From: a virus
Lineage: Duplodnaviria > Heunggongvirae > Uroviricota > Caudoviricetes
Length of the DNA: 64,000 bases
Strand: one strand, 5' to 3'
Virus record (IMG/VR): IMGVR_UViG_3300033233_000005
Each line of letters starts with the position of its first letter. Within the stretch, counting starts at the first letter, position 1. The position numbers were made by a program, and so were the translations under genes. The notes beneath the pieces were generated by a model. It did no database searches and was not told the origin of the DNA. It saw only the letters and a list, made by a program, of their open reading frames with translations. Below are positions 46,091 to 58,008 of the stretch, in pieces.

Positions 46091-46100
46091 CGGTTTTATT

Positions 46101-46181: not shown

Positions 46182-46193
46182 GGTTTTATAAAT

Positions 46194-46273: not shown

Positions 46274-46290
46274 GGTTTGATACAAATGAT

Positions 46291-46373: not shown

Positions 46374-46384
46374 GCATTATAAAT

Positions 46385-46466
46385 GGGAGCGTGGCGGAAC
46401 TGGCATACGCATTCGCCTTAAGAGCGAACGCCGCAAGGCTTGAGGGTTCAACTCCCTCCGCTCCCA
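46385..46466 (+). tRNA. tRNA-Leu (UAA)
   Basis: class II, anticodon loop CTTAAGA. Confidence 0.75.
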
Positions 46467-46482
46467 CGGTATAAATGACGTT

Positions 46483-46722
46483 ATGACAATAGAAATCGGC
46501 AAGATTAAAAGATGGTTCTCGGGGCTGTTTACCAGAATAACAAAATGGAAGTCGACAGAGTATACTAGTGTCCATAAATTAAATGGTAGAACCTTGGACC
46601 CGGATAGAGATTCTGCTATAATCGAAGAAATGAATAGGCATATTGATCATTTAGATAAGAGATTAGACGAAATGCATGACATGCTTGATGGCATCCCTAG
46701 AATGTCAAGTTTCTTTAAATAA
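46483..46722 (+). CDS. hypothetical protein inside the tRNA island
   Basis: 79 aa ORF. Confidence 0.45.
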   Translation: MTIEIGKIKRWFSGLFTRITKWKSTEYTSVHKLNGRTLDPDRDSAIIEEMNRHIDHLDKRLDEMHDMLDGIPRMSSFFK

Positions 46723-46724
46723 AT

Positions 46725-46809
46725 GCGCTTGTGGTGGAACTGGCAGACACGTTAGCCTTAGGAGCTAATGGGTAAAACCGTGGGGGTTCGAATCCCTCCA
46801 GGCGCACCA
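46725..46809 (+). tRNA. tRNA-Leu (UAG)
   Basis: class II, anticodon loop CTTAGGA, CCA encoded. Confidence 0.75.
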
Positions 46810-46815
46810 GGACTT

Positions 46816-47049
46816 ATGGATTTTATAGTTAATGCAGCAGTGCCTCGCAACAAGGTATATTTCACAACGGCACCGCATAAGATCACGATACCGGCCCACA
46901 TAGATGTAGAGGTTAAGGTCTTTGACAACGCGCCGTCATTACGATATACAATCACGGCATTTGAACAGATGGGTACGGGAATCTTTAATACAGGTATATT
47001 GCCACCTGATATCTATGGAGAAGAAGATGGGCACTGGGCGCTGGTATAA
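46816..47049 (+). CDS. hypothetical protein
   Basis: ATG 7 nt after the tRNA CCA. Confidence 0.4.
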   Translation: MDFIVNAAVPRNKVYFTTAPHKITIPAHIDVEVKVFDNAPSLRYTITAFEQMGTGIFNTGILPPDIYGEEDGHWALV

Positions 47050-47092
47050 AATCCTCAGCAATAAAACAGAATAAACAAAGCAGGAGGCTGAC

Positions 47093-47374
47093 ATGACCAT
47101 TTCTCAAGCTATCGGTTGGTTGAAGACCCTCAGGGAACGCCATACGGAGTTGGTGAACCTTCGGAATACCAACTCCCACCGTGAAGATCGGTTGTTCGGT
47201 GACAAGCAGACAATCAAGCGGGAACCGACTTATGACGTCAAGAAACTGGACAAGTTAGTCAATAAGGTAGCTATGGAAGTCCGCAAGCTGGACGAGGCTA
47301 TCAAGGAAACCAATGCTAAGACCGAGGTAATCGGTTTCAAGAAGGATGAGAACGCTCTCGGTCAGGTAGAATAA
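47093..47374 (+). CDS. hypothetical coiled-coil protein
   Basis: RBS AGGAGG. Confidence 0.5.
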   Translation: MTISQAIGWLKTLRERHTELVNLRNTNSHREDRLFGDKQTIKREPTYDVKKLDKLVNKVAMEVRKLDEAIKETNAKTEVIGFKKDENALGQVE

Positions 47375-47379
47375 ATCTA

Positions 47380-47740
47380 ATCCTACGGGAAAGGGTGGTG
47401 AACGGTCGGGGCTATAAACATAACGATCTCATACCTCACACTGCATTAACCGAGCCATGATATCAGCATGGCACAGTGTGGAGTTGGCATCTTAAAAACG
47501 AGTACGGCGGGGATGGGGCAGGATAGTCCGGTTGTTTGGACATGTCTCCGGACGATAAACTCTAAAGAAATGTAAATGTGAGGATACTCACTCCAAAATA
47601 TGGACATCCCTTACAGGATACCATTATTACTTGTTGCTGATTGGTGTAGTGGCTATATGCCCTTGATTGTTACCCTAGTTGATAGTTGGTAACATAACCC
47701 TCTTGCGACCTGTCCGTGCTCCTGGTATAATATACATAAT
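47380..47740 (+). ncRNA. candidate structured noncoding RNA
   Basis: no ORF; nested inverted repeats CACACTG..GCCATG-ATATCAG-CATGGC..CAGTGTG, GTCCGG..GACATGTC..CCGGAC, GTTACC..GGTAAC; ends at a TATAAT-like element before tRNA-Pro. Confidence 0.3.
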
Positions 47741-47817
47741 CGGGGTGTGGGTTAATGGGAGACCGCCTGCCTTGGGCGCAGGAGTTTGAGCAGGTTCGAT
47801 TCCTGCCACCCCGACCA
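47741..47817 (+). tRNA. tRNA-Pro (UGG)
   Basis: anticodon loop CTTGGGC, T-arm GCAGG-TTCGATT-CCTGC, CCA encoded. Confidence 0.7.
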
Positions 47818-47862
47818 GCTTTATTCTACACCGCTTCGCGCTTGGCGCGGGCGGCGAAGCTG

Positions 47863-47869
47863 TATAAAA
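47863..47869 (+). promoter_or_regulatory. TATAAAA in the loop of AAGCTG/CAGCTT hairpin
   Basis: GAAGCTG-TATAAAA-CAGCTTGCGG. Confidence 0.3.
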
Positions 47870-47893
47870 CAGCTTGCGGACAGCCACCTCGGC

Positions 47894-48160
47894 ATGATAC
47901 AATCTAAGATAGAACAATACGCAATGGCGGTAGAAGGAATGGCAGACATTATTTGTACTGAGATTGAACAACGGCATATGTCAATATTAATTCCTGGCAT
48001 GCGAATGATGACAGACGCATCCCGAACCGATTCGGGGCGACAGGAAGCCCTCCTATATTTGAAACCGCAGTTGGAACGAATTAGAGACACGGCAGAGCGA
48101 CATGGAGTTATAGAGGTCCGAGATCAAGCAGTAAGTTGCCTGTCGTACTTCTCGAATTAA
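47894..48160 (+). CDS. hypothetical protein
   Basis: in-frame ATG downstream of tRNA-Pro. Confidence 0.4.
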   Translation: MIQSKIEQYAMAVEGMADIICTEIEQRHMSILIPGMRMMTDASRTDSGRQEALLYLKPQLERIRDTAERHGVIEVRDQAVSCLSYFSN

Positions 48161-48199
48161 AGGTTCCAACAACTCAGGTTTCCAGTGGATATGATCAAT

Positions 48200-48271
48200 G
48201 CTAGCGTGGCAGAATGGCTATGCACTTTCCTTGTAAGAAAGAACATGGGGGTTCGATTCCTCTCGCTAGCT
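48200..48271 (+). tRNA. tRNA-Thr (UGU)
   Basis: anticodon loop CTTGTAA. Confidence 0.65.
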
Positions 48272-48332
48272 CGGCATTTTAAAGCCCGACTTTAATAAGT
48301 CTTGGGCGGGTACTTTGACAACTGAGGGCTTT

Positions 48333-48383
48333 GGTAATGCGGTAGCAGCAGTATTGTTGCCGCATTACCTGCATTTATATATT
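48333..48383 (+). terminator. hairpin plus U-rich tail (intrinsic terminator or processing hairpin)
   Basis: GGTAATGCGG...CCGCATTACC 10-bp stem then TGCATTTATATATT. Confidence 0.4.
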
Positions 48384-48466
48384 GCGGGGTCGCCTAACTG
48401 GTCGGGCACCTGACTTTGGATCAGGAGCGGGAAACCGCACTCTAGGTTCGAATCCTAGCCCCGCAG
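48383..48466 (+). tRNA. class-II-architecture tRNA with anticodon UUG (Gln anticodon), G73
   Basis: long variable arm GCGG-GAAA-CCGC, anticodon stem CCTGA/TCAGG, loop CTTTGGA, U1-A72. Confidence 0.45.
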
Positions 48467-48478
48467 GTCTAGTATAAA

Positions 48479-48566
48479 GGAAGGTTGGCAGAGTGGCCTA
48501 TCGCGCTTGTTTGCTAAACAAGTGGGTGTAACAACTCCACAGGTTCGAATCCTGTACCTTCCGCCA
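48479..48566 (+). tRNA. tRNA-Ser (GCU)
   Basis: class II, anticodon loop TTGCTAA, G73, CCA encoded. Confidence 0.7.
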
Positions 48567-48569
48567 GGT

Positions 48570-48998
48570 ATGATAAACACATATGTATTACTCGGTGGAA
48601 GCACCAATATGCGAAAGGCAGTGATTGAAACTCCGTGTGGAAAGTGGGAAATTAGCGGAATCGAAGAAAATACAGTTTTTCTTGCATTACGTACCAAACA
48701 CATAGAGATTGTAACTGACCCGAATACCTTATCAAGATTACGGGTGCCAATGATGCAGCACCTGAGATTTAGGCTGGTCCCATTTAAATTCAAATGGTAC
48801 CATCGAATAGATTCAAAGGGTTACATTGAGAGACCCTTTCCCTTTGGTGTCTGTTTAGGCGATTGGGTCCGGGCACAAAGATTGATCCATACGATTGAGA
48901 GAGATATGACATACTTCTGCGATCCTTTGATGAAAGAGGATACGGAAGTCAGCATCAAGGTGAAACCGATCAAACAGATGTTTTCATTGCTCCCATAG
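48570..48998 (+). CDS. DPL-tail family protein
   Basis: CCAGGTATGATAAA junction; ...MTYFCDPLMKEDTEV; 3' end overlaps tRNA-Asp. Confidence 0.5.
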   Translation: MINTYVLLGGSTNMRKAVIETPCGKWEISGIEENTVFLALRTKHIEIVTDPNTLSRLRVPMMQHLRFRLVPFKFKWYHRIDSKGYIERPFPFGVCLGDWVRAQRLIHTIERDMTYFCDPLMKEDTEVSIKVKPIKQMFSLLP

Positions 48999-49062
48999 TT
49001 TAGTAGTAAAACACCCGCCTGTCACGCGGAAATCAGGAGTGCGATTCTCCTTGGGAGCGCCA
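48989..49062 (+). tRNA. tRNA-Asp (GUC)
   Basis: anticodon loop CTGTCAC; T-loop TGCGATT; CCA encoded. Confidence 0.65.
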
Positions 49063-49063
49063 G

Positions 49064-49138
49064 CAGGGGATAGTGAAAAAGTATCACATTCGCTTGGGGT
49101 GCGAATAGTCCCGGTGCAACTTCCGGGTCCCCTGACCA
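49064..49138 (+). tRNA. tRNA-Pro (GGG)
   Basis: anticodon loop TTGGGGT; 8-nt T-loop TGCAACTT. Confidence 0.55.
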
Positions 49139-49157
49139 GCTTATTTTGATGTGAAGC

Positions 49158-49230
49158 CAGGCTTTAGCTCAACGGTAGAGCATCGCCCCCTGATAGGGCG
49201 AGGTAACTGGTTCGACTCCAGTAAACCTGG
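49158..49230 (+). tRNA. tRNA-Ile(GAU)-like scaffold with register-shifted anticodon loop (reads as CCUGAUA)
   Basis: TAGCTCAACGGTAGAGC D-arm; CGCCC-CCTGATA-GGGCG with C33 and one extra nt at the D/anticodon junction; acceptor C-A mismatch. Confidence 0.4.
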
Positions 49231-49243
49231 ATAAGCATCATTT

Positions 49244-49317
49244 CGGGGAATAGTGAAAAGGCATCACACGTGTTTCGGGTACACGCAGTCCGAGTTCGAG
49301 TCTCGGTTCCCCGACCA
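49244..49317 (+). tRNA. tRNA-Pro (CGG)
   Basis: anticodon loop TTCGGGT, canonical T-loop TTCGAGT, CCA. Confidence 0.75.
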
Positions 49318-49337
49318 GCTTATTTTGACATGAAGTT

Positions 49338-49414
49338 AGGGTTGTAGCTCAGCACGGAGCGGCAGGAGGCGTGGACCTCCCCAGCGGTAGCGGGTGAAAC
49401 TCCCGTCAAACTAA
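49338..49414 (+). pseudogene. degenerate tRNA-like element (pseudo-tRNA)
   Basis: canonical D-arm TAGCTCAG..GAGC and T-arm GCGGG-TGAAACT-CCCGT but 6-nt anticodon loop, 4-nt D/anticodon junction and 2 acceptor mismatches. Confidence 0.45.
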
Positions 49415-49442
49415 ATAATGTCACGGTCAGCTAGCATGAAGT

Positions 49443-49546
49443 CAGGCTGTAGCTCAGTAATGGAGCAAACCCCCGCCATAAGGGGATCAATTCCGATCCT
49501 TTTACGGGGGGGCCAAAGGTAGCTGGTGAAACTCCAGTCAACCTGA
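49443..49546 (+). tRNA. tRNA-like gene with CAU-containing loop and about 33-nt insertion (possible intron or degenerate tRNA)
   Basis: acceptor CAGGCTG/CAACCTG, D-arm, T-arm GCTGG-TGAAACT-CCAGT; CCCC-GCCATAA-GGGG plus hairpin GGATC-AATTCC-GATCC insert. Confidence 0.4.
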
Positions 49547-49560
49547 ACAGTGCTATTTAT

Positions 49561-49649
49561 TGGCAGGACGCGAATGTTGGTTAGTCGCATCCGGCTGTTA
49601 CCCGGAGATCATCGAAAGATGAACGTAGGTTCGATCCCTACCCTGCCAG
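49561..49649 (+). tRNA. class-II-architecture tRNA with anticodon GUU (Asn anticodon), G73
   Basis: anticodon stem TCCGG/CCGGA, loop CTGTTAC, variable arm CATC-GAAA-GATG, U1-A72. Confidence 0.45.
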
Positions 49650-49659
49650 GATTTATAAT

Positions 49660-49734
49660 GGTGAGTGTAGCTCAATGGTAGAGCGCTGGTCTGTGGCACC
49701 AGAAACGCGGGATCGATACCCGTCATTCACCCCA
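49660..49734 (+). tRNA. tRNA-His (GUG)
   Basis: G-1, C73, anticodon loop CTGTGGC, CCA. Confidence 0.75.
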
Positions 49735-49872
49735 GCTTAGTAAGGATACTGGAAGTAGCCAACTTGCGTAAAATAGGAGCCGGTGTTTCCTTAGTAGGTC
49801 CTCTCAAACTGGACCGAAGGGTTGCCAGTGGCTGTCCGTGCGCGGGATAATCGGGCCCAGTATCCCTTTAAT
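49735..49872 (+). other. unassigned structured spacer in the tRNA island
   Basis: hairpins GGTCC-TCTCAAACT-GGACC and GGGATA..TATCCC; no tRNA fold found. Confidence 0.3.
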
Positions 49873-49946
49873 GGGGATGTCGTCTAGAAGCAGGACACCT
49901 GGCTTTCATCCAGGAGAAGAGGGAGCATTACCCTCCATCCCTACCA
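49873..49946 (+). tRNA. tRNA-Glu (UUC)
   Basis: anticodon loop CTTTCAT; T-loop AGCATTA; CCA. Confidence 0.6.
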
Positions 49947-49956
49947 GTTTCTTAAT

Positions 49957-50031
49957 GGGCGATTAGCTCAGCAGTAGAGCGCTTGATTCACATTCAAGAG
50001 GTCGCAGGGGCAGCACCTGCATCGCTCACCA
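49957..50031 (+). tRNA. tRNA-Val (CAC)
   Basis: anticodon loop TTCACAT; T-loop GGCAGCA; CCA. Confidence 0.65.
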
Positions 50032-50034
50032 TTT

Positions 50035-50109
50035 GGCCCCGTAGCTCAGCGGTAGAGCGTCTGGTTTACATCCAGAAGGCCGTAGGGTCAGCACCTACCG
50101 GGGTCACCA
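50035..50109 (+). tRNA. tRNA-Val (UAC)
   Basis: anticodon loop TTTACAT; T-loop GTCAGCA; CCA. Confidence 0.65.
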
Positions 50110-50112
50110 GGT

Positions 50113-50430
50113 ATGATAAATCTAAAGAAGCATCCAATCAGATTTTACCAGATAGACAATGACGGCGATAACTATCTATATTTCGCTTATGGTCGTAAAT
50201 GCTATGATTGGGCATCCAATAGACCAGACAGAGATGGGATAAGCATTACAGAGATCACAAAGGAAGACATGATGCAATCGGGTATACAGAGAATAACCAA
50301 TTTAGCCGATTTTTATAGTCTAAATGCGATTCAATTTGCGGTGGCTAAATATTTACTGAATCACCCAGATATTTTGAATGATCCGTTGTGGACTGGCGCA
50401 GATGTTGAATTACCAAGTCTTGAGAAATAA
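50113..50430 (+). CDS. DPLW-tail family protein
   Basis: CCAGGTATGATAAA junction; ...NHPDILNDPLWTGADVE. Confidence 0.55.
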   Translation: MINLKKHPIRFYQIDNDGDNYLYFAYGRKCYDWASNRPDRDGISITEITKEDMMQSGIQRITNLADFYSLNAIQFAVAKYLLNHPDILNDPLWTGADVELPSLEK

Positions 50431-50433
50431 CAT

Positions 50434-50519
50434 GGAGGGAATCCGGATGGTTGAGGAACCTGTTTCGAAAACAGCTGGCCCTAATAGGCTCGTGGGTTCG
50501 ATTCCCACTCCCTCCGCCA
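50434..50519 (+). tRNA. tRNA-Ser (CGA)
   Basis: class II, anticodon loop TTCGAAA, G73, CCA. Confidence 0.65.
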
Positions 50520-50565
50520 GCTATTATGATGAAGATATGTGGGAAGTAGGATCTGACTAATTAAC

Positions 50566-50653
50566 GGAAAGTTGGCCGAGTGGTTTAAGGCGTACGCTTG
50601 GAGAGCGTAAGAGTGTAACAACTCCGTAGGTTCGAATCCTACACTTTCCGCCA
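50566..50653 (+). tRNA. tRNA-Ser (GGA)
   Basis: class II, anticodon loop TTGGAGA, G73, CCA. Confidence 0.8.
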
Positions 50654-50654
50654 T

Positions 50655-50729
50655 GGTGGGGTAGCCAAGTGGTAAGGCAACTGCCTGCAAAGCAGTTCTA
50701 CGTCGGTTCGAATCCGACCCTCACCTCCA
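50655..50729 (+). tRNA. tRNA-Cys (GCA)
   Basis: anticodon loop CTGCAAA, U73, CCA. Confidence 0.75.
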
Positions 50730-50758
50730 GCATTATAAACTTAAAAATAGGAGAGAAA

Positions 50759-51028
50759 ATGAAACTGCAATTTCCATGTTGGTTGACCGGCCACAAATGG
50801 GAACTGTACGGTACCGCCAGGCATGATAGAGTAAGACATGATAGATTAGGCAACGAAACCACAAGGTGGGAGGAGGTACCAGCAATAGTTAATCAGTGTA
50901 AATGCTGTGGAAAGAGAGTAGGATTCACAGTATTACCCGATAGTAATGAATCAACCAATGTAGATTGGCTAATGAGTCTGGCCAGCTTCGGTAAAATACG
51001 ATCTCCGAACAGGATGTCCGAGGATTAA
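50759..51028 (+). CDS. Cys-containing small protein (CKCCGK)
   Basis: in-frame ATG after GGAGAG. Confidence 0.45.
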   Translation: MKLQFPCWLTGHKWELYGTARHDRVRHDRLGNETTRWEEVPAIVNQCKCCGKRVGFTVLPDSNESTNVDWLMSLASFGKIRSPNRMSED

Positions 51029-51030
51029 TT

Positions 51031-51105
51031 GGCCCTGTCGTCTACTGGCTAGGACAGGTCCCTCTCAAGGACCAGAAACGAGTTCAATTCTCGTCAGGGC
51101 CACCA
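51031..51105 (+). tRNA. tRNA-Glu (CUC)
   Basis: anticodon loop CTCTCAA, T-loop TTCAATT, CCA. Confidence 0.75.
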
Positions 51106-51117
51106 GTACTATATAAT

Positions 51118-51188
51118 GCCCCCGTAGGTAAATAGTATACCGCACCCTTGATAAGGGTTAATCCTTGGAGCGTAACCAAGCGGGGGCA
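51118..51188 (+). tRNA. tRNA-Ile (GAU)
   Basis: anticodon loop TTGATAA; T-loop AGCGTAA. Confidence 0.6.
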
Positions 51189-51194
51189 GGAATC

Positions 51195-51578
51195 ATGAAG
51201 ATAGAACGCTCGATTCGATCTGAATACTTTGGTGCGGGTTCAAAGTACATGCCGGTTCTGATAATTGGAGATCATTGTTATAGTATGCGCATTGCAAATC
51301 GACATTTTATAATTAGACGTCACTCATCAATGGATTCCCTTTTATTACCCCAAAATAGGTTGGAGTTAATTGGCTATGTTGATATGCACGGCTATTTGGA
51401 GGCATCTTGGCACCAACCCTGTGTAACGTTAAACGGGTGGTATGAAATGCTAGAAGCTAAAATCCCATTTATATGTGATCCACTAGCCTGGGATGGCGAT
51501 CAGCAGGAGATAGAAATAGAAGGCGAACCGGCTGGTATTCTCGTAGACAAATTATTAAAGGAGGGTGAGCCGTGTTGA
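51195..51578 (+). CDS. DPLAW-tail family protein
   Basis: ...KIPFICDPLAWDGDQQ. Confidence 0.55.
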   Translation: MKIERSIRSEYFGAGSKYMPVLIIGDHCYSMRIANRHFIIRRHSSMDSLLLPQNRLELIGYVDMHGYLEASWHQPCVTLNGWYEMLEAKIPFICDPLAWDGDQQEIEIEGEPAGILVDKLLKEGEPC

Positions 51579-52114
51579 ATTCGGCGGTCCTATTGTTGAA
51601 TTCTACCTACGAGCCTCTTAACATAATCAATGTGAAGCGTGCCCTTCGTCTACTATTTACAGATAAGGCCAATGTAATAGAAACGGATGGATCAATGGTG
51701 CGGTCTTCCAGGAAGAACACCAAGATGCCTTTGGTGGTCAGATTGAGCTACTACGTCAAACGGCCTCACCAGCACGTCCGGTTTACTAAACAGGCCGTAT
51801 TCGTTCGTGATCAATTCACTTGCCAGTATTGTGGCATACAGTCCAGAGATCTAACTCTTGATCACGTGGTACCTAAAACCCGCAATGGTGAAACTACCTG
51901 GGGTAACGTCGTAGCAGCTTGCAAATCCTGCAATTCTGCCAAGAGTGACAAGTCTCTCAAGGATGCTGGATTGAAGCTCAAGCATCAGCCGAAGGAGCCT
52001 AAATTCCTACCGTATTTGAAAGCAGTCAATAGGGAACGTCATCAGGAATGGAATAAGTATCTATTCACAGATACTGACAGTCCGTTCCTTCTGCAAGGGC
52101 CGCTTCCGGTATAA
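51572..52114 (+). CDS. HNH endonuclease
   Basis: GTG after GGAGGG; CQYCG...LDHVVPKTRNG...N..AACKSCNSAK. Confidence 0.8.
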   Translation: MLNSAVLLLNSTYEPLNIINVKRALRLLFTDKANVIETDGSMVRSSRKNTKMPLVVRLSYYVKRPHQHVRFTKQAVFVRDQFTCQYCGIQSRDLTLDHVVPKTRNGETTWGNVVAACKSCNSAKSDKSLKDAGLKLKHQPKEPKFLPYLKAVNRERHQEWNKYLFTDTDSPFLLQGPLPV

Positions 52115-52133
52115 AGCTCGGCGTCGGGTCGTG

Positions 52134-52209
52134 GCAGAATGGATATGCACTCCCCTCCTAAGGGAGCATGAAGTGGGTTCGACTCCCACCGACCCGGCCA
52201 TGGTATAAT
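52134..52209 (+). tRNA. tRNA-Arg (CCU)
   Basis: anticodon loop CTCCTAA, CCA; TATAAAG element 9 nt upstream. Confidence 0.65.
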
Positions 52210-52223
52210 AAAACTGCGGGATA

Positions 52224-52298
52224 GCCTAGCGGTGCAGGCATGTGGCTCATACCCATACCAGGTAGGTTCGACTCCTACTCCCGCACCCATCTTCATTC
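52224..52298 (+). tRNA. tRNA-Met/Ile2 (CAU)
   Basis: anticodon loop CTCATAC, U1-A72, CCA. Confidence 0.6.
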
Positions 52299-52315
52299 GA
52301 TTTTATCCTGGGGTA

Positions 52316-52391
52316 GCTGAGATTAGATTAGCGCCTCCCTGAAGAGGAGGAGAGGTTGGTGCAATACCAATCCCCAGGACCAGGAATTATG
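52316..52391 (+). tRNA. tRNA-Phe (GAA)
   Basis: anticodon loop CTGAAGA; T-loop TGCAATA; CCA. Confidence 0.6.
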
Positions 52392-52397
52392 AGAAAT

Positions 52398-52544
52398 TAC
52401 CACGGCAATAAACAGTGTGAGTTGTGCGGTAAACCTACGAATGAGCATTTACGGTTGGTCAGGGTGGCTATATATCACATGGCTTGGTGCTGTCTTAGCT
52501 GTTGGTTGCTTCCGTTAAAGCTTCGCGTACAGAGATGGGGATAA
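52398..52544 (+). CDS. small Cys-rich (Zn-ribbon-like) protein
   Basis: CELCGK...CC..C; 48 aa. Confidence 0.3.
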   Translation, partial: YHGNKQCELCGKPTNEHLRLVRVAIYHMAWCCLSCWLLPLKLRVQRWG

Positions 52545-52549
52545 ATAAC

Positions 52550-52622
52550 GCCAGCGTAGCTCAGTTAGTAGAGCGCTCCGCTCATATCGGAGAGGTAGTG
52601 GGGGCAGAACCCACCGCTGGTA
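52550..52622 (+). tRNA. tRNA-Met/Ile2 (CAU)
   Basis: anticodon loop CTCATAT; T-loop GGCAGAA. Confidence 0.6.
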
Positions 52623-52628
52623 GGCATT

Positions 52629-52757
52629 ATGAATAAGCGAGAGGGATACGAGAAGATTAAGGGTAAATGCGAACGATGTGGTAAATGGAGAGTATTACGG
52701 ACTGCATTGGAATGGTGGTATTGCTCTAGGTGCTACAAGATTGCAATGTCGAAATAA
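52629..52757 (+). CDS. small Zn-ribbon protein (CERCG...CSRC)
   Basis: 42 aa ORF between tRNAs. Confidence 0.3.
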   Translation: MNKREGYEKIKGKCERCGKWRVLRTALEWWYCSRCYKIAMSK

Positions 52758-52758
52758 C

Positions 52759-52840
52759 GGGTGTGACCCCTAATTGGTCAGGGACTAGCCTCTTAAGCTA
52801 GCGACGCAAGTCACAGTGGGTTCGATCCCCACCACACCCA
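52759..52840 (+). tRNA. class-II-architecture tRNA with anticodon CUU (Lys anticodon), A73
   Basis: anticodon stem CTAGC/GCTAG, loop CTCTTAA, variable arm GAC-GCAA-GTC. Confidence 0.45.
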
Positions 52841-52851
52841 GGTTTTATAAC

Positions 52852-52922
52852 GGGTTGGTAATTCAACAGCAGAATAGCGGGCTTTTAACCCGTCCACGAG
52901 GGTGCGACTCCCTCCCAACCCA
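52852..52922 (+). tRNA. tRNA-Lys (UUU)
   Basis: anticodon loop CTTTTAA; T-loop TGCGACT. Confidence 0.65.
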
Positions 52923-52930
52923 GGAATAAT

Positions 52931-53146
52931 ATGGAACTAAAGAAACTTACAATCGAGTTTGACGAGGCAGAAATGCATGCTCTAATTACCACTGGGGAGC
53001 TATTGCACCAGATGTCTATCAGTGGTAAATTTAGTGAGTGGAAGCGCAGTTTAACATTATACGACAGGAGAAGGTATACTGTCGCCATGGACAGAATGGC
53101 GCTATTAGTCTTCAAATTACAGAAGGCATTGAAAGACGTCAAATAA
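52931..53146 (+). CDS. hypothetical protein
   Basis: 71 aa. Confidence 0.45.
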   Translation: MELKKLTIEFDEAEMHALITTGELLHQMSISGKFSEWKRSLTLYDRRRYTVAMDRMALLVFKLQKALKDVK

Positions 53147-53147
53147 C

Positions 53148-53233
53148 GGGTAGGTGGCCGAATGGTTAGGCGACAGTCTGTAAAACTGTGGAGCTTGTCT
53201 CTGACGGTGGTTCGATTCCACCCCTACCCACCA
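53148..53233 (+). tRNA. tRNA-Tyr (GUA)
   Basis: class II, anticodon loop CTGTAAA, A73, CCA. Confidence 0.8.
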
Positions 53234-53246
53234 GTTTCATAAATTC

Positions 53247-53320
53247 GCGGGGTTGGCGTAATAGTAACGCACTTCCTTGCCAAGGAAGGGTCACCGGAGC
53301 GTAACCGGTACTCCGCTCCA
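53247..53320 (+). tRNA. tRNA-Gly (GCC)
   Basis: anticodon loop TTGCCAA, U73; T-loop AGCGTAA; CCA. Confidence 0.65.
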
Positions 53321-53338
53321 CCTTCATAGGAGTTCATC

Positions 53339-53590
53339 ATGTGGGACAAGATCACCGATTTCACCGATCAGCTAGACTGGTCTGACGTGTTTTTCATTGT
53401 ATCGGGTTTCTCATTCGGCATAACGGCGGCTACGTTCTGGATAAATTTCTTTGATGACGTTAGGGAATGGGGAGCGGGGCTGACCCTATTATTGCTATTA
53501 ATATGGGTGTCAGCTGGCATTATATCAATGCGTGGCGCGCTAAAGTATAAAGAGAGCGTCAGCAAAAAGGCCGGTGTCGTACAAAAGTAG
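53339..53590 (+). CDS. hypothetical membrane protein
   Basis: RBS AGGAG; two transmembrane helices. Confidence 0.5.
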   Translation: MWDKITDFTDQLDWSDVFFIVSGFSFGITAATFWINFFDDVREWGAGLTLLLLLIWVSAGIISMRGALKYKESVSKKAGVVQK

Positions 53591-53595
53591 TACAC

Positions 53596-53610
53596 GCCCT
53601 TGGTAAGGGC
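53596..53610 (+). terminator. short hairpin after gene (weak terminator candidate)
   Basis: GCCCTT-GGT-AAGGGC; no U-tail. Confidence 0.2.
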
Positions 53611-53651
53611 GAAACAAGGGGGCAGTACCCTTCACTGGCTTGGCATTATAG

Positions 53652-53725
53652 GCGGGATTCGTATAGTGGTAATACCCTAGACTTCCAATCTAGAGACGTG
53701 GATTCGATTTCCACATCCCGCTCCA
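53652..53725 (+). tRNA. tRNA-Gly (UCC)
   Basis: anticodon loop CTTCCAA, U73, T-loop TTCGATT, CCA. Confidence 0.8.
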
Positions 53726-53731
53726 GTCATT

Positions 53732-54211
53732 ATGAGATTTATCAGCGCATATTGGCATGTCAATAAACATCTGAGTATATCATGTGGCAAGCACATATGG
53801 ATAGTTAGTAGAATAACTAAGAATAGAATCACAATAATACGCAGAATGCGGGTCGTAGGGCACACGGACGATGGGCATGAATATCATGGTACCTACAGGC
53901 TCCCTAGAAACGTGAAATGGATTCAACCTAATGGTGAATTGGGTAGTATAGAAACCAGTTATGGGCCGAATCGGCGTAGAGAATACGACACCACTCATAG
54001 ATATTCGATCACACAGATAAAGAAGGAAATACGAGACAGTAAGATATTCTACGATCCATTAGCTCCGTATAAAGGGTTTCACGGGCTAACCATCGATATA
54101 TTACGGGAGAATCGTATAGTAGCTATTACTTCCGCCTCCAAAGCGGAAAACAGTGGTGCGATTCCACTTTCTCCCGCCAGCAATAATCAACAAGTAAAGG
54201 AGAGCAAATGA
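53732..54211 (+). CDS. DPL-tail family protein (extended C-terminus)
   Basis: ...DSKIFYDPLAPYKGFHG. Confidence 0.45.
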   Translation: MRFISAYWHVNKHLSISCGKHIWIVSRITKNRITIIRRMRVVGHTDDGHEYHGTYRLPRNVKWIQPNGELGSIETSYGPNRRREYDTTHRYSITQIKKEIRDSKIFYDPLAPYKGFHGLTIDILRENRIVAITSASKAENSGAIPLSPASNNQQVKESK

Positions 54212-54744
54212 ACAAGCAAGAATGGATAGATGCATATCACGCTCTGGCCAAGAAAGTGGCTCCCAGGTTACCCTCTGTTACCGAATTGGGTGCCGCTTGT
54301 CAAATGACCAGAGAACGTGCCAGGCAGATAACCAATAAATACAAACTGCCAGTTGATCATTTATCTAGCATCAGGAAAGCTAAACGCATAGAAGCGGTCA
54401 TAAGCGCACACAGTGCATTAGAATCAGAATTACATAGACCACCACAGTTACGTGAAGTGCATAAGAAGCTTGGTAATTCCTATGAATTGCAGGGTATTAG
54501 GCTGGCGTTGCGTTCTAACAAGATGCATTCTATTCATGGTAGTGTAAAAACAGATCGAAGGGTTAAATTCATCAAATATTATAATGAATTTAAACGAACA
54601 TTTCACCGTGTTCCATATGGAGCAGAGATGGCTAGGAAACTTAATCTTTGGACCCTGACTGCCATTAGAATGGCGCACGAGCTAAAATTGCCTCTATTTA
54701 AGGGCACACTTCTACCGGTATCACAGAGGGGTACCTACTGGTGA
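54208..54744 (+). CDS. putative sigma-70 region-4-like HTH protein
   Basis: ATGA; ELGAACQMTRERARQITNK resembles the sigma region 4.2 helix. Confidence 0.4.
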   Translation: MNKQEWIDAYHALAKKVAPRLPSVTELGAACQMTRERARQITNKYKLPVDHLSSIRKAKRIEAVISAHSALESELHRPPQLREVHKKLGNSYELQGIRLALRSNKMHSIHGSVKTDRRVKFIKYYNEFKRTFHRVPYGAEMARKLNLWTLTAIRMAHELKLPLFKGTLLPVSQRGTYW

Positions 54745-55475
54745 GTGTGCTAGACACCGGTATTAAGGGATATACCCAATTAGATAGGCAGGCTATGGCT
54801 AAGGGTGGTGGATCAGTAATCATAGGGATAGACGAAGTTGGAATGGGGCCGTTGGCCGGTCCCGTTTGCGCGTGTGCTCTGATTGTCGGGAAGGAACCTA
54901 AGCAGGGGGAACTGGTGGTAAACGATTCCAAGCTGTTGTCACCCAAGAGGCGCGAGGAATTGTTCCCCAAGATCAGAGATAACAGCATCTTTGAATTGGG
55001 ATGGGTGACGGTCAAAGAAATCAACAAACTACAGAACCTTAACGCTGCTGGAAATCTGGCTAGGGAACGGGCATTAAAGAAACTGATCAAAACGATAGGC
55101 TGGCTGCATCCGAATGCGATTATTTGCGATTTCTTCCCGATAGACGCCGGTAACATACCCGTTCTCGCGGTTCCCAAGGCCGATGCCAATTCCTTCATCG
55201 TAGCGTGTGCGTCAATCGTGGCCAAGGTAGCTAGAGATAGATGGATGATCGCGCAAGCCAAGAAATATCCGGAATACATGTGGGATAAGAATAGCGGATA
55301 CAGAACACCAGAGCATCACATGGCACTAAAGATGCATGGCATCACCCCGATACATAGGACTTATCTGGTAGACAAATATTTAAAGGACTACACTATTGCT
55401 GGGTCGCCTAATGGTATGGCAACTGTCTCTGAAACAGTCACAATGGAGGTTCGAACCCTCCCCCAGCAGGAATGA
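54741..55475 (+). CDS. rnhB: ribonuclease HII
   Basis: GTGA; VIIGIDEVGMGPLAGPV and DSKLLSPKRREELF motifs; 3' end overlaps tRNA-Gln. Confidence 0.9.
   Translation: MSVLDTGIKGYTQLDRQAMAKGGGSVIIGIDEVGMGPLAGPVCACALIVGKEPKQGELVVNDSKLLSPKRREELFPKIRDNSIFELGWVTVKEINKLQNLNAAGNLARERALKKLIKTIGWLHPNAIICDFFPIDAGNIPVLAVPKADANSFIVACASIVAKVARDRWMIAQAKKYPEYMWDKNSGYRTPEHHMALKMHGITPIHRTYLVDKYLKDYTIAGSPNGMATVSETVTMEVRTLPQQE
55397..55469 (+). tRNA. tRNA-Gln (CUG)
   Basis: anticodon loop CTCTGAA, T-arm GGAGG-TTCGAAC-CCTCC, U1-A72; lies inside the rnhB ORF. Confidence 0.6.
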
Positions 55476-55660
55476 TGCATAAACTTAGCATACCAATAGC
55501 TAAATTACTGTTGATTAAAGAGAAATTACCAGAAGAATTGGCGATGCAACTAGAGGCATACAAGGTGGCAGGAGAGATAGTCAATGCTGACCTGAGTATA
55601 CTGGTCTCTGTATCAGAAGAGACTTATAACATATTACTTAGCTCCGAATTCCATGATTGA
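55472..55660 (+). CDS. hypothetical protein
   Basis: ATGA-coupled. Confidence 0.4.
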   Translation: MMHKLSIPIAKLLLIKEKLPEELAMQLEAYKVAGEIVNADLSILVSVSEETYNILLSSEFHD

Positions 55661-55895
55661 TACCAATCCTTTACTGAATAAGGAGATAATGGATCAGACT
55701 TTCAGCTATGAATGCGTAGTATGCGTTTCTAGAAATTGGGCATACGGATACTGGCATTTATTTGGATGGAGATTATTTTGGACTATACACATATATGAAT
55801 TCTGTACAGAATGCTACAAAGAATCCGATGTCTTACAGCCCGAAAGTAGATTTACTAAATGGCTATTTAAACATGGCTGGCTAACCACACCATAG
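55653..55895 (+). CDS. hypothetical Cys/Trp-rich protein
   Basis: ATGA-coupled. Confidence 0.4.
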   Translation: MIDTNPLLNKEIMDQTFSYECVVCVSRNWAYGYWHLFGWRLFWTIHIYEFCTECYKESDVLQPESRFTKWLFKHGWLTTP

Positions 55896-55903
55896 GAGAA
55901 GAT

Positions 55904-56407
55904 ATGAAGAATAGGATGCGCGAGCCAGTAAAAGAGGAACAGGGCATACACAAGAAGTGGTATGAAGAGGCCAAGAAGATGACTCTTAAAGATCTTCCTA
56001 AATTCATAGAGAAGTTGGATGAGATGTACGAACACGATTACGGCACTGTTTGTCATTCTATAGCCGCCGCTGCTTTAGCCACTGCCAACGCCATGAATAG
56101 GGGTAAGGGGAGTCGTGGAGGTATTACTGGATTTCAGTCTGGCGCAGTTATGTGGCAGTTTATAACTGGATGGGGATTATATGAGAAAGATGCCCCTCTG
56201 CACATTATCGACTATAACGACATGCTATACCCACAGTCTGTTGGTAAGTTCACCGAGATCAGCGCTGACACGTGGGAACATCTACAGAAAGAGGCTAAGA
56301 CCAGATTAAAAGAAGATAAGGATAAGTCGGCGCATCCCAATGTACGTGCCCATTGGCAATTAATAATAGATGGGGTCGTCCCATTTGGGTATAAAATAGA
56401 GAAATAA
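55904..56407 (+). CDS. hypothetical protein
   Basis: RBS AGGAG; 167 aa. Confidence 0.5.
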   Translation: MKNRMREPVKEEQGIHKKWYEEAKKMTLKDLPKFIEKLDEMYEHDYGTVCHSIAAAALATANAMNRGKGSRGGITGFQSGAVMWQFITGWGLYEKDAPLHIIDYNDMLYPQSVGKFTEISADTWEHLQKEAKTRLKEDKDKSAHPNVRAHWQLIIDGVVPFGYKIEK

Positions 56408-56413
56408 AACGTT

Positions 56414-56489
56414 GGACCGGTAGCCTAGAGGACAGGCACTGAGCTTCTACCTCAGCTTCACGCGGGTTCGATTCCTGCCCGGTCCGCCA
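56414..56489 (+). tRNA. tRNA-Arg (UCU)
   Basis: anticodon loop CTTCTAC, CCA. Confidence 0.7.
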
Positions 56490-56529
56490 GCATTATAGCC
56501 AACGAGATAAATACGATTTGACACGATGC

Positions 56530-56604
56530 GGGGAATTCGTCCAATGGCTAGGACATTAGCCCGACATGCTAAAAACACTGGTTCGAATCCAGTATTCCCT
56601 ACCA
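56530..56604 (+). tRNA. tRNA-Val (GAC)
   Basis: anticodon loop CCGACAT (C33), T-loop TTCGAAT, CCA. Confidence 0.6.
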
Positions 56605-56605
56605 T

Positions 56606-56680
56606 CGGGTTGTGGTCCAATAGATAAGACAGCAGCCTCCGAAGCTGCAAACGGGAGTGCAAATCTCCCCAACCCGGCCA
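56606..56680 (+). tRNA. tRNA-Arg (CCG)
   Basis: anticodon loop CTCCGAA, C1-G72, CCA. Confidence 0.65.
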
Positions 56681-56688
56681 GGAATAAT

Positions 56689-56949
56689 ATGATAAATAAA
56701 CTTGAATTAAAATGCGCATTGTCTGGCAAAAACATACAATGGATATTTATGGCGATGCTACTGATAATATTCAATACACTTATGGTATATGTTAATTATC
56801 CGCATAAGCGTTGCTTGATTAATGTTCTAGCTGCGTTGGTCCCACTTAGTATACTATGGGACAGAATCCGCATGGCTAGAATAGACTTGAAATTGCAGAA
56901 GGAGATAGACGAGCTAATGGAGTTAATATACAAACATGAAACGCATTAG
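56689..56949 (+). CDS. hypothetical membrane protein
   Basis: ATG after the tRNA; two transmembrane helices. Confidence 0.45.
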   Translation: MINKLELKCALSGKNIQWIFMAMLLIIFNTLMVYVNYPHKRCLINVLAALVPLSILWDRIRMARIDLKLQKEIDELMELIYKHETH

Positions 56950-57406
56950 TAAATCTCAGTATTACATGTCTCTGGTGAACGTAGTTAAATTGCGTTCACA
57001 TGACGCCGAGACACAGGCTGGCGCGGTTTTGATAAAGAAAGACACAGGTGCGGTGATCGCCACAGGATTTAACGGATTCGTAAGGGGTGCCAATGATGCA
57101 GCATTACCCAATACCAGACCAGAAAAATACAAGCACATAATACATGCAGAAGAGAATCTGATAGCCCATTGCGCTAGGCATGGCATATCAATGTCCGGTT
57201 GTGAGATATACATCAACTTCGCACCGTGCGAACATTGCGCCAGATTGTTATGGCAGTGCGGAATAGATACTATAATCATTGAAAGTACCGATGCGACTCC
57301 GTCATTTAAGAAATATTTTGAGGCTATGACCACTATGAAGGATATAGCAGTAAAGATGACCACTACGCCAGAGCATCATACGGTATTAAAATTAAAATCT
57401 AAATAA
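56936..57406 (+). CDS. dCMP/cytidine deaminase (CDA fold)
   Basis: HAEENLI...PCEHCARLL zinc-binding motifs. Confidence 0.8.
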   Translation: MKRISKSQYYMSLVNVVKLRSHDAETQAGAVLIKKDTGAVIATGFNGFVRGANDAALPNTRPEKYKHIIHAEENLIAHCARHGISMSGCEIYINFAPCEHCARLLWQCGIDTIIIESTDATPSFKKYFEAMTTMKDIAVKMTTTPEHHTVLKLKSK

Positions 57407-57407
57407 T

Positions 57408-57499
57408 GCCCCTGTAGCATAATGGTAGTGCAGCAAGCTTATACCTTGCAAGCCCTAGATTGGGGCGCGATGGGGGTTCGATTCCCTCCAGGGGTACCA
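57408..57499 (+). tRNA. class-II-architecture tRNA with anticodon UAU (Ile anticodon), A73
   Basis: anticodon stem GCAAG/CTTGC, loop CTTATAC, 22-nt variable arm GCCC-TAGATTG-GGGC, CCA. Confidence 0.45.
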
Positions 57500-57505
57500 G
57501 TTATC

Positions 57506-57835
57506 ATGATCAAGATAATGAAGACCATAGACAGACCGAAGTATGAGGGTAATTTCTATGTCCAGACACCCGTTGGTCTATGGTGGTTAAATGGAAACGC
57601 CGATGGTTGGTTAGAATGGATGTCCACCGCAGCCCGTAGTATATTGGATAGACCAGAAGCCAAATTACACAGGCTAACTGCAGAAGACATAATTAGACCA
57701 TGGGTAGCAGCTATGATCAGATCCGTAGAAGAACACCAATACATGTTCTTTGATCCGTTCGCGCAGATAGAATACAACCATAGTATGTTACATAGAACTA
57801 AGATCGTAAGAATGCCATACAACGATCCGAATTGA
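57506..57835 (+). CDS. DPL-tail family protein (DPFAQ)
   Basis: ...HQYMFFDPFAQIEYNH. Confidence 0.5.
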   Translation: MIKIMKTIDRPKYEGNFYVQTPVGLWWLNGNADGWLEWMSTAARSILDRPEAKLHRLTAEDIIRPWVAAMIRSVEEHQYMFFDPFAQIEYNHSMLHRTKIVRMPYNDPN

Positions 57836-57839
57836 ATAT

Positions 57840-57911
57840 GCTGGCGTGGCAGAATGGCTATGCACTCCGCCCGTAACGGAGACAATGTAGGTTCAATTCC
57901 TACCGCTAGCT
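57840..57911 (+). tRNA. tRNA-Thr (CGU)
   Basis: anticodon loop CCCGTAA, T-loop TTCAATT. Confidence 0.65.
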
Positions 57912-57921
57912 CGTCTTAATT

Positions 57922-57993
57922 GGGCTTGTCGTTCAACAGATAGGACTAGCGCCTACGAAGCGCTGAATGGGGGTGCGACTCCCTCCAAGCCCG
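57922..57993 (+). tRNA. tRNA-Arg (ACG)
   Basis: anticodon loop CTACGAA; T-loop TGCGACT. Confidence 0.65.
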
Positions 57994-58008
57994 GTATTAT
58001 CTCCGCGT

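Follow-up and report, generated by a model that had tools for sequence, protein, structure and literature searches.

The window analyzed here, a stretch of 64,000 nucleotides from a virus of the Caudoviricetes (IMG/VR record IMGVR_UViG_3300033233_000005), carries a large array of transfer RNA genes, four of which combine a long, base-paired variable (V) arm with an unexpected anticodon: tRNA-Gln(UUG), tRNA-Asn(GUU), tRNA-Lys(CUU) and a gene with the AUA-reading anticodon UAU, hereafter tRNA(UAU). On balance we think it probable that all four are working tRNAs of cognate-type identity with an added hairpin, which decode CAA, AAY, AAG and AUA in the standard manner; none of them is, most likely, a tRNA for Ser, Leu or Tyr whose anticodon has been exchanged. 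The fourth gene belongs to a family found in phages and bacteria whose V arm, judged from its sequence and pairing, is a mimic of the anticodon arm of tRNAIle(GAU). Architecture classes of tRNA are usually taken as fixed, a long variable arm in bacteria marking Leu, Ser, Tyr or Sec, and yet long-arm Asn, Lys, Gln and AUA-reading tRNAs are common in phage arrays, some of them annotated in GenBank without comment.

Architecture of the four tRNA genes

ARAGORN called the four genes as tRNA-Gln(ttg) at 48382-48467, tRNA-Asn(gtt) at 49560-49650, tRNA-Lys(ctt) at 52759-52840 and tRNA-Ile(tat) at 57408-57499 (Table 1). They span 82-92 nt, each has a base-paired variable arm, and RNAfold folds all of them as five-arm cloverleaves. 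Every one has a 7-bp acceptor stem, a 5-bp T stem (a 7/5 branch) and an ordinary D arm, which in tRNA(UAU) consists of a 4-bp stem and a 7-nt loop. The Rfam tRNA model (RF00005, gathering threshold 29 bits) scores the Gln, Lys and Ile genes at 54.6, 49.0 and 61.1 bits, respectively, and places the UAU hairpin of the last as the anticodon arm with high posterior probability. The Asn gene matches no Rfam family at the gathering threshold and is called by ARAGORN, with its cloverleaf given by folding; its best match in a permissive Rfam search was tRNA-Sec, at 31 bits against a cutoff of 47. A tRNASec identity (RF01852) was rejected on the basis of this score, the GUU anticodon and a branch that is 7/5 rather than 8/5.

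The sequence-only reading of this DNA had described four long-armed tRNAs with the anticodons UUG, GUU, CUU and UAU next to a genuine class-II complement. Both observations hold, the first confirmed by ARAGORN, Rfam and folding, the second by the presence of five Leu genes, three Ser genes and one Tyr gene. It had also seen no canonical Asn or Gln(UUG) gene, and indeed a search combining ARAGORN at a lowered threshold with Rfam returned no other gene for either, nor for Lys(CUU) or Ile(UAU), making each of the four the sole array gene for its anticodon. The five-arm cloverleaf with its paired variable arm is shared with bacterial Leu, Ser and Tyr tRNAs and with tRNASec. Compared with class-II tRNAs, however, the four differ in anticodon, discriminator and acceptor end, and the Gln and Asn genes in the body as well. 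As a separate observation, position 8 is A rather than the near-universal U in the Asn (49568) and Lys(CUU) (52766) tRNAs.

Amino-acid identity and codon meaning

In bacteria the pair U1-A72 followed by the discriminator G73 is the standard acceptor end of Gln and Asn tRNAs and is not specific to Ser. Bacterial leucyl-tRNA synthetase (LeuRS) needs A73, and G73 is incompatible with both LeuRS and the tyrosyl enzyme (TyrRS). The G73 of the Gln and Asn genes had been noticed from the sequence and taken as a Ser-type discriminator; the base is there, but as part of a normal bacterial Gln/Asn end it ceases to point toward Ser. The Lys and Ile genes carry A73.

We scored the four genes with a naive-Bayes classifier that is blind to the anticodon and the variable region, trained on 1,618 distinct, ordinarily built tRNAs from phage loci and reaching a five-fold cross-validated accuracy of 0.85. 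The Gln gene was assigned to Gln (-24.7, with the next class at -36.3, Ser at -42.0 and Leu at -49.9) and the Asn gene to Asn (-35.7 vs. -40.5 for the next class). Across all four genes Leu ranked 13th-17th and Ser 6th-20th. With U1-A72, G73, anticodon and body all of the cognate kind, the Gln and Asn genes look like substrates for the enzymes that their anticodons indicate.

The geometry of the V arms leads in the same direction. Among the fetched loci, Ser arms (162 tRNAs) are mostly stems of 5-6 bp flanked by 1 unpaired nt at either end. Leu arms have a stem of 3-4 bp that begins without any unpaired nt at its 5' end and is followed by 1 nt, and in Tyr arms 1 nt precedes and 3 nt follow a stem of 3 bp. 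In the window, the V-arm stems of Gln, Asn and Lys measure 3-5 bp under the caps GAAA, GAAA and GCAA, with 1-2 unpaired nt before them and 3 nt after. The stem of the Ile arm, 4 bp closing a loop of 7 nt, is preceded by 2 nt and followed by 5. None of the four resembles the arms of Ser or Leu tRNAs. A substrate of seryl-tRNA synthetase (SerRS) would combine a V-arm stem of about 5-7 bp, flanked at either end by roughly 1 unpaired nt, with a Ser-like body, a combination that none of the four shows. Nor does any of them combine A73 with the Leu-type D arm and core that characterize a LeuRS substrate: Gln and Asn have G73, the D arm of the Ile gene is ordinary, and Leu ranks low in the classifier for all four. 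As for TyrRS, whose substrates are marked by A73, G34, U35 and a Tyr-type V arm, Lys(CUU) has A73, U35 and a Tyr-like arm geometry but C34, while Gln and Asn carry G73 and Ile lacks U35.

The meaning of the codons was examined in three conserved proteins, each aligned with 112-149 homologues: the dCMP deaminase and NADAR proteins listed in Table 1, and PurA, which is encoded on the same contig just beyond the window. For the sixteen ATA codons the column averages are I 0.40, V 0.30 and L 0.18, close to the I 0.38-0.49 of ATT/ATC columns and unlike the L 0.46-0.71 of those at Leu codons. Three of them (two in dCMP deaminase and one in NADAR) lie in columns that are at least 93% Ile, and two of the three ATA codons of PurA in columns dominated by Leu. 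Of 16 conserved columns at AAT/AAC codons, 10 are dominated by Asn, and of 6 such columns at AAG codons, 4 are dominated by Lys; CAA was too rare to judge. Judged by the homologue columns, the contig's genes expect the standard amino acids at ATA, AAY and AAG and are thus written in the standard code there. ATA makes up 20.9 per 1000 codons in the open reading frames (ORFs) of the window and AAG 45.7 per 1000, the highest value of the codons tabulated, and at codons used this often tRNAs that bring the wrong amino acid would exact a very high price. The suggestion that SerRS or LeuRS misacylates these tRNAs and causes recoding is therefore opposed by the classifier, the V-arm geometry, the cognate G73 and the standard-code columns alike. 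The evidence favors an alternative raised alongside it, that of real Gln(UUG) and Asn tRNAs with an aberrant architecture.

The variable arm of the tRNA(UAU) family

We defined the family of tRNA(UAU) by a UAU decoding arm, a V hairpin of 3-5 bp with a 7-nt loop and a central GAU, a linker of about 5 nt and A73. The window gene has every one of these features and aligns without strain among 92 sequences; the GAU of its V hairpin lies at 57458-57460, in the center of the 7-nt loop, and the third pair from the loop is C-G. A first scan for members required the motif AGATT, and a repeat scan without any constraint on the arm returned 27 new distinct members lacking AGAUU, 25 of which nonetheless keep the central GAU. 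A hairpin with a 3-5 bp stem, a 7-nt loop and GAU at loop positions 3-5 is present in 132 of 135 distinct members. The loops of the new members include CAGAUAA, UAGAUGA, CUGAUUA and, in one locus, CUGAUAA, a sequence identical to that of the bacterial tRNAIle(GAU) anticodon loop.

The stem of the hairpin carries a similar signal. The pair equivalent to 29-41, third from the loop, is C-G in 127/132 members, whereas its neighbors covary through four or five pair types; the background frequency of C-G at 29-41 is 11.5% among the 1,618 phage anticodon stems and 49% in tRNAIle(GAU). The alignment of 92 sequences is 97.7% paired, with a covariation score of 0.852 against 0.215 for shuffles, and all four pairs of the V helix show compensatory changes. 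When arms were sorted into 20 classes by their four stem pairs and positions 32/38 alone, 95 of the 132 V hairpins came out as tRNAIle(GAU) anticodon arms, and the real UAU arm never did. The linker on the 3' side measures 5 nt in 108 of the 132, the ordinary length of a class-I variable loop.

The identity set of E. coli tRNAIle comprises G34 or lysidine, A35, U36, t6A37, A38, A73, C4-G69, the 12-23 pair and C29-G41 (PMC9976931). A73 is nearly universal in the family, C4-G69 is found in 61/92 members, U12-A23 in 72/92, and the equivalent of A38 in the V hairpin in 108/132; the loop of that hairpin also has A33 in 127/132 and a pyrimidine at 37 in 109/132. In the window gene A73 and C4-G69 are present, the decoding arm offers U34, A35, U36 and A37, and the V hairpin offers the central G, A and U and the C-G at the 29-41 equivalent, but A33, U37 and G38. 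The candidate Ile determinants of tRNA(UAU) are split, in other words, between two arms. Two further contacts, a kissing of the UAU loop with the GAU loop and a pairing of the T arm with AGAUU, were considered and rejected for want of convincing complementarity.

Recurrence in other phages and in bacteria

BLAST searches with the UAU tRNA returned similar unannotated stretches in Synechococcus phage DSL-LC02 and Lactobacillus phage LpeD, whose records hold no tRNA features in the region. The long-V UAU gene also occurs in Lactobacillus phages ENFP1, Lpa804 and 3-521 and in Synechococcus phage SynMITS9220M01, and some isolate records annotate it simply as tRNA-Ile. Pattern scans of IMG/VR gave at least 120 matches each for long-arm UAU, Asn(GUU) and Lys(YUU), and among the matches listed nearly all are long tRNAs validated by ARAGORN. 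Mesorhizobium phage Cp1R7A-A1 has annotated 88-nt genes for tRNA-Lys(CUU), tRNA-Lys(UUU) and tRNA-Asn, the last of which is 82.5% identical to the window Asn gene over 56 nt including the V arm and has the hairpin CAUC-GAAA-GAUG in common with it. An exact-pattern search and BLAST against phages gave no match for the Gln tRNA, and for the Lys tRNA BLAST against phages matched the T arm only.

In loci not selected for the type in question, the long arm is present in 7/11 distinct Ile(UAU) tRNAs, 14/95 Thr(UGU), 8/52 Cys, 6/79 Trp, 1/46 Asn and 1/76 Lys(UUU). The long-V form is therefore the usual phage form of the UAU tRNA and a minority form for Gln, Asn and Lys. Such class-I tRNAs with long V arms also keep company, with four in the window and three or four per array in eleven other loci. 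In bacterial assemblies the UAU pattern is abundant among the matches listed, being particularly frequent in tRNA arrays of 10-30 genes on large Acidobacteriota contigs and occurring also in Rhodobacterales.

Two further observations concern related tRNAs. Phage arrays often contain tRNA-Leu genes of class-I shape with a short arm (78 against 143 long-armed ones among parsed genes, with three of the short kind in Cp1R7A-A1), which together with the long-arm class-I tRNAs means that phage arrays cross the class boundary in both directions. Long-arm tRNA-Lys genes, among the matches listed, divide by their discriminator, 85 having A73 and 30 having U73 (the latter typically GGACC...GGUCC-U-CCA), which is not the usual base for Lys. 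Many of these tRNA-Lys genes have D arms of a Ser/Tyr-like kind, in which the stem measures 3 bp and the loop is large.

Discussion

The simplest reading of the V arm in the UAU family is that it represents a retained or duplicated tRNAIle(GAU) anticodon arm, which would supply determinants for isoleucyl-tRNA synthetase (IleRS). The E. coli enzyme charges tRNAIle(UAU) poorly, and that of M. mobile prefers UAU about 100-fold more (PMC3575796). In our model the GAU arm would present to IleRS those anticodon-arm determinants that the real UAU anticodon lacks, enabling isoleucylation in hosts whose IleRS expects G34 or lysidine and hence a TilS-independent decoding of AUA. During charging the GAU hairpin, with its linker of canonical 5-nt length, might stack in the position of the anticodon arm, an alternative stacking that would bring it under the D stem and leave the UAU hairpin extruded. 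We would put the chances of such a "two-headed" tRNA, in which the UAU arm would read AUA on the ribosome and the GAU arm would be read by IleRS, a little short of even. If it is true, codon reading and amino-acid identity are physically separated within one tRNA, phages and acidobacterial tRNA arrays hold a widespread natural solution to TilS-independent AUA decoding, and the allo-tRNA(UAU) group of Acidobacteria would have to be reinterpreted as isoleucine tRNAs. A GAU hairpin serving as a handle for IleRS would constitute a natural case of an identity element moved outside the anticodon, a phage AUA decoder in need of neither host TilS nor a specialized IleRS, and a ready design for orthogonal or anticodon-independent tRNAs.

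The hairpins of the other three genes call for a different account. Their loops (GAAA, GAAA and GCAA) led us to reject the idea that they mimic cognate anticodons. In the Asn and Lys families, hairpin sequence and length vary freely, typically under GNRA or UUCG caps, and short, GNRA-capped hairpins of unconserved sequence would act through their shape, if they act at all. Speculatively, the most plausible role of such a hairpin would be that of a steric change that spares the tRNA from host tRNA-targeting nucleases or other host factors. The PARIS nuclease AriB cuts E. coli tRNALys(UUU), tRNAThr(UGU) and tRNAAsn(GUU) between positions 40 and 41 and appears to contact the D loop, and T5 escapes it through variant tRNAs (PMC12409363). 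A hairpin emerging beside the 3' strand of the anticodon stem could block AriB-like enzymes, and if these arms do protect against tRNA-cutting defense nucleases, they would represent a new class of escape.

A number of observations weigh against these interpretations. For the cognate identity of the four, the classifier was ambiguous on Lys(CUU), with Tyr at -35.7 and Lys at -37.0, and it placed the body of the UAU tRNA and its family in the CAU class (Met/Ile2) or in Arg, not in Ile. The V-arm geometry of the Gln, Asn and Lys genes resembles that of tRNATyr, and the codon test on three proteins reveals what the genes expect rather than what the tRNAs deliver, decoding by host tRNAs being possible. 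The handle model faces the difficulty that a GAU loop with A33 and usually U37 cannot carry t6A37, a strong determinant for bacterial IleRS, and that a V arm in its usual orientation points away from the anticodon site of that enzyme, so that the tRNA would have to switch its conformation or the enzyme bind it in a new mode. The window copy itself departs from the family consensus twice, in the G at loop position 7 and in the A-U of the 12-23 pair. Finally, the targets of AriB overlap with the long-arm isotypes in part only and show no clear enrichment of long V arms, as the fractions for Thr(UGU), Asn and Lys(UUU) given above illustrate.

Of the competing explanations, that which takes the Gln, Asn and Lys hairpins as neutral insertions, or as the leftover of a tRNATyr-like scaffold, with no function of their own, we judge unlikely. 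It accommodates the free variation of arm sequence and length between relatives, the match to bacterial tRNATyr geometry and the minority share of long-V forms among the Asn and Lys tRNAs of phages. It sits less easily with the retention of hairpins under stable GNRA or UUCG caps across hundreds of divergent contigs, with the Asn hairpin common to the window and the Mesorhizobium phage, and with the co-occurrence of several long-V class-I tRNAs in one array.

We regard it as improbable that the four genes are not meant for decoding, whether as decoys or sponges for anticodon nucleases or tRNA-binding defenses or as regulatory tRNA-like RNAs. Defenses that target tRNAs are widespread and are countered by phage tRNAs (PMC10264068, PMC11464382, PMC12409363, PMC12445682), and a contig related to ours through PurA encodes an Rnl1-like RNA ligase together with RtcB. 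In a Ser-specific amber reporter, six variants of allo-tRNA(UAU) showed no activity, and the text of PMC5389517 suggests that these tRNAs may have no use in translation. That reporter, as described in the same text, needed Ser at position 146, however, and therefore a tRNA charged with Ile would also have scored as inactive. Against decoys we would further set the observation that the four genes fill exactly the anticodons otherwise missing from a one-per-anticodon set, that they keep canonical 7/5 stems, anticodon loops and T loops (the Ile gene with an encoded CCA in addition), and that all helices in the alignment of the UAU family display strong purifying covariation.

Mischarging, in which long V arms and G73 or A73 would make the four into substrates of SerRS, LeuRS or TyrRS and put Ser, Leu or Tyr at Gln, Asn, Lys and Ile codons, strikes us as very unlikely. 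Its premise is sound in that the long V arms are real, and the slight preference of the classifier for Tyr over Lys in the Lys(CUU) gene (with A73, U35 and a Tyr-like arm) and the two PurA ATA codons in Leu-dominated columns speak for it. It is contradicted by the low ranks of Leu and Ser for all four genes, by stems of 3-5 bp with 3-5 nt on their 3' side, unlike Ser arms (5-6 bp, 1 nt) and Leu arms, and by the G73 of Gln and Asn, which is unfit for bacterial LeuRS or TyrRS. Each gene is, moreover, the only one in the array for its anticodon, including the one for the abundant AAG, and the columns are Ile-like at ATA, Asn at AAY and Lys at AAG. There are precedents in the nematode nev-tRNAIle(UAU) and nev-tRNAGly, leucylated in vitro (PMC3333845, PMC4300185), and in the allo-tRNAs with non-Ser anticodons (PMC5389517). 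The notion, confined to the Ile gene, that its GAU hairpin is the true anticodon arm reading AUC/AUU and that the UAU arm was inserted between the D and anticodon stems has the canonical linker length, the tRNAIle(GAU)-like stem pairs and a few members with a fully canonical CUGAUAA loop to recommend it, but is made highly improbable by the A at position 33 and the pyrimidine at 37 in most members, by the canonical UAU loop (CUUAUAC, though mostly fixed by the scan patterns), by the alignment of the UAU hairpin as anticodon arm in the Rfam model, and by the two tRNAIle(GAU) genes that the window already has, with no other UAU-anticodon decoder of AUA.

Read as cognate tRNAs with an added hairpin, the four genes invite comparison with several known systems, among them the allo-tRNA(UAU) of Acidobacteria. 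As described in the text of PMC5389517, these RNAs combine UAU with a long V arm, like the window gene, and occur in soil bacteria within tRNA polycistrons; they are the most abundant allo-tRNA class and were left without a function. Among the UAU tRNAs of Acidobacteria in our genome scan are some whose acceptor and D arms are irregular; these have the same V hairpin (GCGC-CAGAUUA-GCGC) and recall this group. Allo-tRNAs have an 8/4 or 9/3 branch and a long D stem with a tetraloop, whereas the four window tRNAs, and most phage members of the UAU family, have the standard 7/5 branch and ordinary D arms. The main text of Mukai et al. 2017 (PMC5389517) assumed Ser identity with no mention of isoleucine charging, and text searches of that paper found no description of the V-arm loop. 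If these RNAs are in fact isoleucine tRNAs, the negative result with the Ser reporter is to be expected.

The nematode nev-tRNAs (nev-tRNAIle(UAU) and nev-tRNAGly(CCC); PMC3333845, PMC4300185) likewise have a class-II shape with non-Leu/Ser anticodons, UAU included. They are, however, eukaryotic and derived from tRNALeu, unlike the window tRNAs, which lack a Leu-like body, and no anticodon-arm mimic is reported in the abstracts of those papers. In M. mobile tRNAIle2(UAU) and the tilS-bypass tRNAIle(UAU) of B. subtilis, AUA is decoded without lysidine by an unmodified-type UAU (PMC3575796, PMC3919564). Both are class-I tRNAs, and the M. mobile solution lies on the side of the enzyme, in IleRS Arg865 (PMC3575796), whereas the window tRNA itself carries an additional GAU arm. 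Phage escape tRNAs (T5 tRNALys/Thr/Asn against AriB and tRNAThr against P2 OLD; PMC12409363, PMC12445682, PMC10264068) overlap with the long-arm types in the isotypes Lys, Asn and Thr, and like those of the window are phage-encoded, arranged in arrays and structurally unlike host tRNAs. Known escapes rely on base substitutions, located in the D loop and in the loop or stem of the anticodon arm, or on a shortening of the anticodon stem, an insertion in the variable arm being unreported.

Class-II-shaped tRNAs with non-class-II anticodons and UAU-anticodon Ile tRNAs are known already. What appears to be new is the prevalence of 7/5 long-arm Asn, Lys, Gln and UAU tRNAs in phage arrays, and the arm of the UAU family as a putative mimic of the tRNAIle(GAU) anticodon arm. 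In the open-access and bioRxiv literature we found described neither phage tRNAs for Asn, Lys or Gln with a long V arm nor a V arm that mimics an anticodon arm. For practical purposes, annotation pipelines should not take such genes as evidence of recoding.

Genomic context of the tRNA array

ARAGORN at default settings finds 38 tRNAs in the window and, at a lowered threshold, 41 in the 45.7-58.2 kb region alone; several further array tRNAs that it missed were recovered by Rfam. All window tRNAs but one fall inside the plus-strand array, where small ORFs and genes for an HNH endonuclease, RNase HII and dCMP deaminase are found between them.

Table 1. Positions of the four long-arm tRNAs, their parts and other features of the window
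Feature	Position	Strand	Remarks
tRNA array	45847..57994	+	~45 genes, nearly one per anticodon; ARAGORN, Rfam, Pfam
tRNA-Gln(UUG)	48383..48466	+	U1-A72, G73, no encoded CCA
tRNA-Gln V region	48426..48441	+	A, GCGG-GAAA-CCGC, ACU; 4-bp stem, GNRA loop, 1 nt 5', 3 nt 3'
tRNA-Asn(GUU)	49561..49649	+	U1-A72, G73, A8, 11-nt D loop; array's only Asn gene
tRNA-Asn V region	49607..49624	+	GA, UCAUC-GAAA-GAUGA, AC; 5-bp stem, GNRA loop
tRNA-Lys(CUU)	52759..52840	+	A73, A8; reads AAG
tRNA-Lys V region	52802..52815	+	C, GAC-GCAA-GUC, ACA; 3-bp stem, GNRA loop
tRNA(UAU)	57408..57499	+	G1.U72, C4-G69, A73, encoded CCA
tRNA(UAU) decoding arm	57433..57449	+	GCAAG-CUUAUAC-CUUGC; canonical loop C32, U33, UAU, A37
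tRNA(UAU) V region	57450-57471	+	
tRNA(UAU) V-arm hairpin	57452..57466	+	GCCC-UAGAUUG-GGGC; then 5-nt linker GCGAU before T stem
HNH endonuclease ORF	51572-52114	+	inside tRNA array
dCMP deaminase gene	56936-57406	+	ends 2 nt ahead of tRNA(UAU)
Two AAA ATPases	15981-17825, 22625-24256		further to the MoxR-like ATPase
NADAR protein	19814-20659		
SPFH/Band-7 protein	31511-32521		
MoxR-like AAA_5 ATPase	36226-37338	+	~1.7 kb upstream of DUF2201 protein
DUF2201 VWA/metallopeptidase-domain protein	39066-40361	+	
Ala(UGC)	45931		elbow variant
Ala(CGC)	46019		elbow variant
Asp	48989		elbow variant
Pro(GGG)	49064		elbow variant
Glu(UUC)	49873		elbow variant
Val(CAC)	49957		elbow variant
Ile(GAU)	51117		elbow variant
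Phe	52307		elbow variant
CAU	52550		elbow variant
Lys(UUU)	52852		elbow variant
Gly(GCC)	53247		elbow variant
Thr(GGU)	53570		elbow variant
Trp	54105		elbow variant
Arg(CCG)	56606		elbow variant
Arg(ACG)	57921		elbow variant

HNH genes also adjoin the long-arm UAU tRNA in Synechococcus phage DSL-LC02 and Lactobacillus phage LpeD, and such neighbors are consistent with a shuffling of tRNA genes driven by homing endonucleases. For the deaminase of the array an identity as tRNA adenosine deaminase was rejected, its source-named homologues being dCMP deaminases. An ORF of the source assembly (57422-57835, plus strand) overlaps tRNA(UAU) by 78 nt, which suggests that its true start is probably further downstream.

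The contig probably derives from a large phage genome, an origin that rests on gene content and the character of the contig, since ten window ORFs scanned against PHROGs were left almost without annotation; the window has no structural genes. A megablast of 16 kb against INPHARED gave no match, a 178-aa ORF of the array had zero homologues among 5.8 billion proteins, and the IMG/VR relatives of RNase HII were without tRNAs. The contig related through PurA (55% identity) has two ordinary tRNAs only. Its Rnl1-type RNA ligase and RtcB (3759-4721 and 15129-16358 of that contig) are RNA-repair enzymes, which hints that the phage lineage faces tRNA-cutting defenses.

About one third of the array tRNAs, among them those marked as elbow variants in Table 1, have a D loop without the universal G18G19, reading AGUA or AGCA instead, and the same tRNAs have G rather than U at T-loop position 55 (xGCxxxx for UUCRA). 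G55 occurs in 68 of 4,734 tRNAs of the fetched loci, and 65 of those 68 also lack the D-loop GG. The combination has the appearance of a covarying elbow variant, one with an unusually high frequency in this genome. Toward the start of the window, at 1891-1955 on the plus strand, there is a match to the type-P5 twister self-cleaving ribozyme (RF02684) at 48.4 bits, above the gathering score of 37.6.

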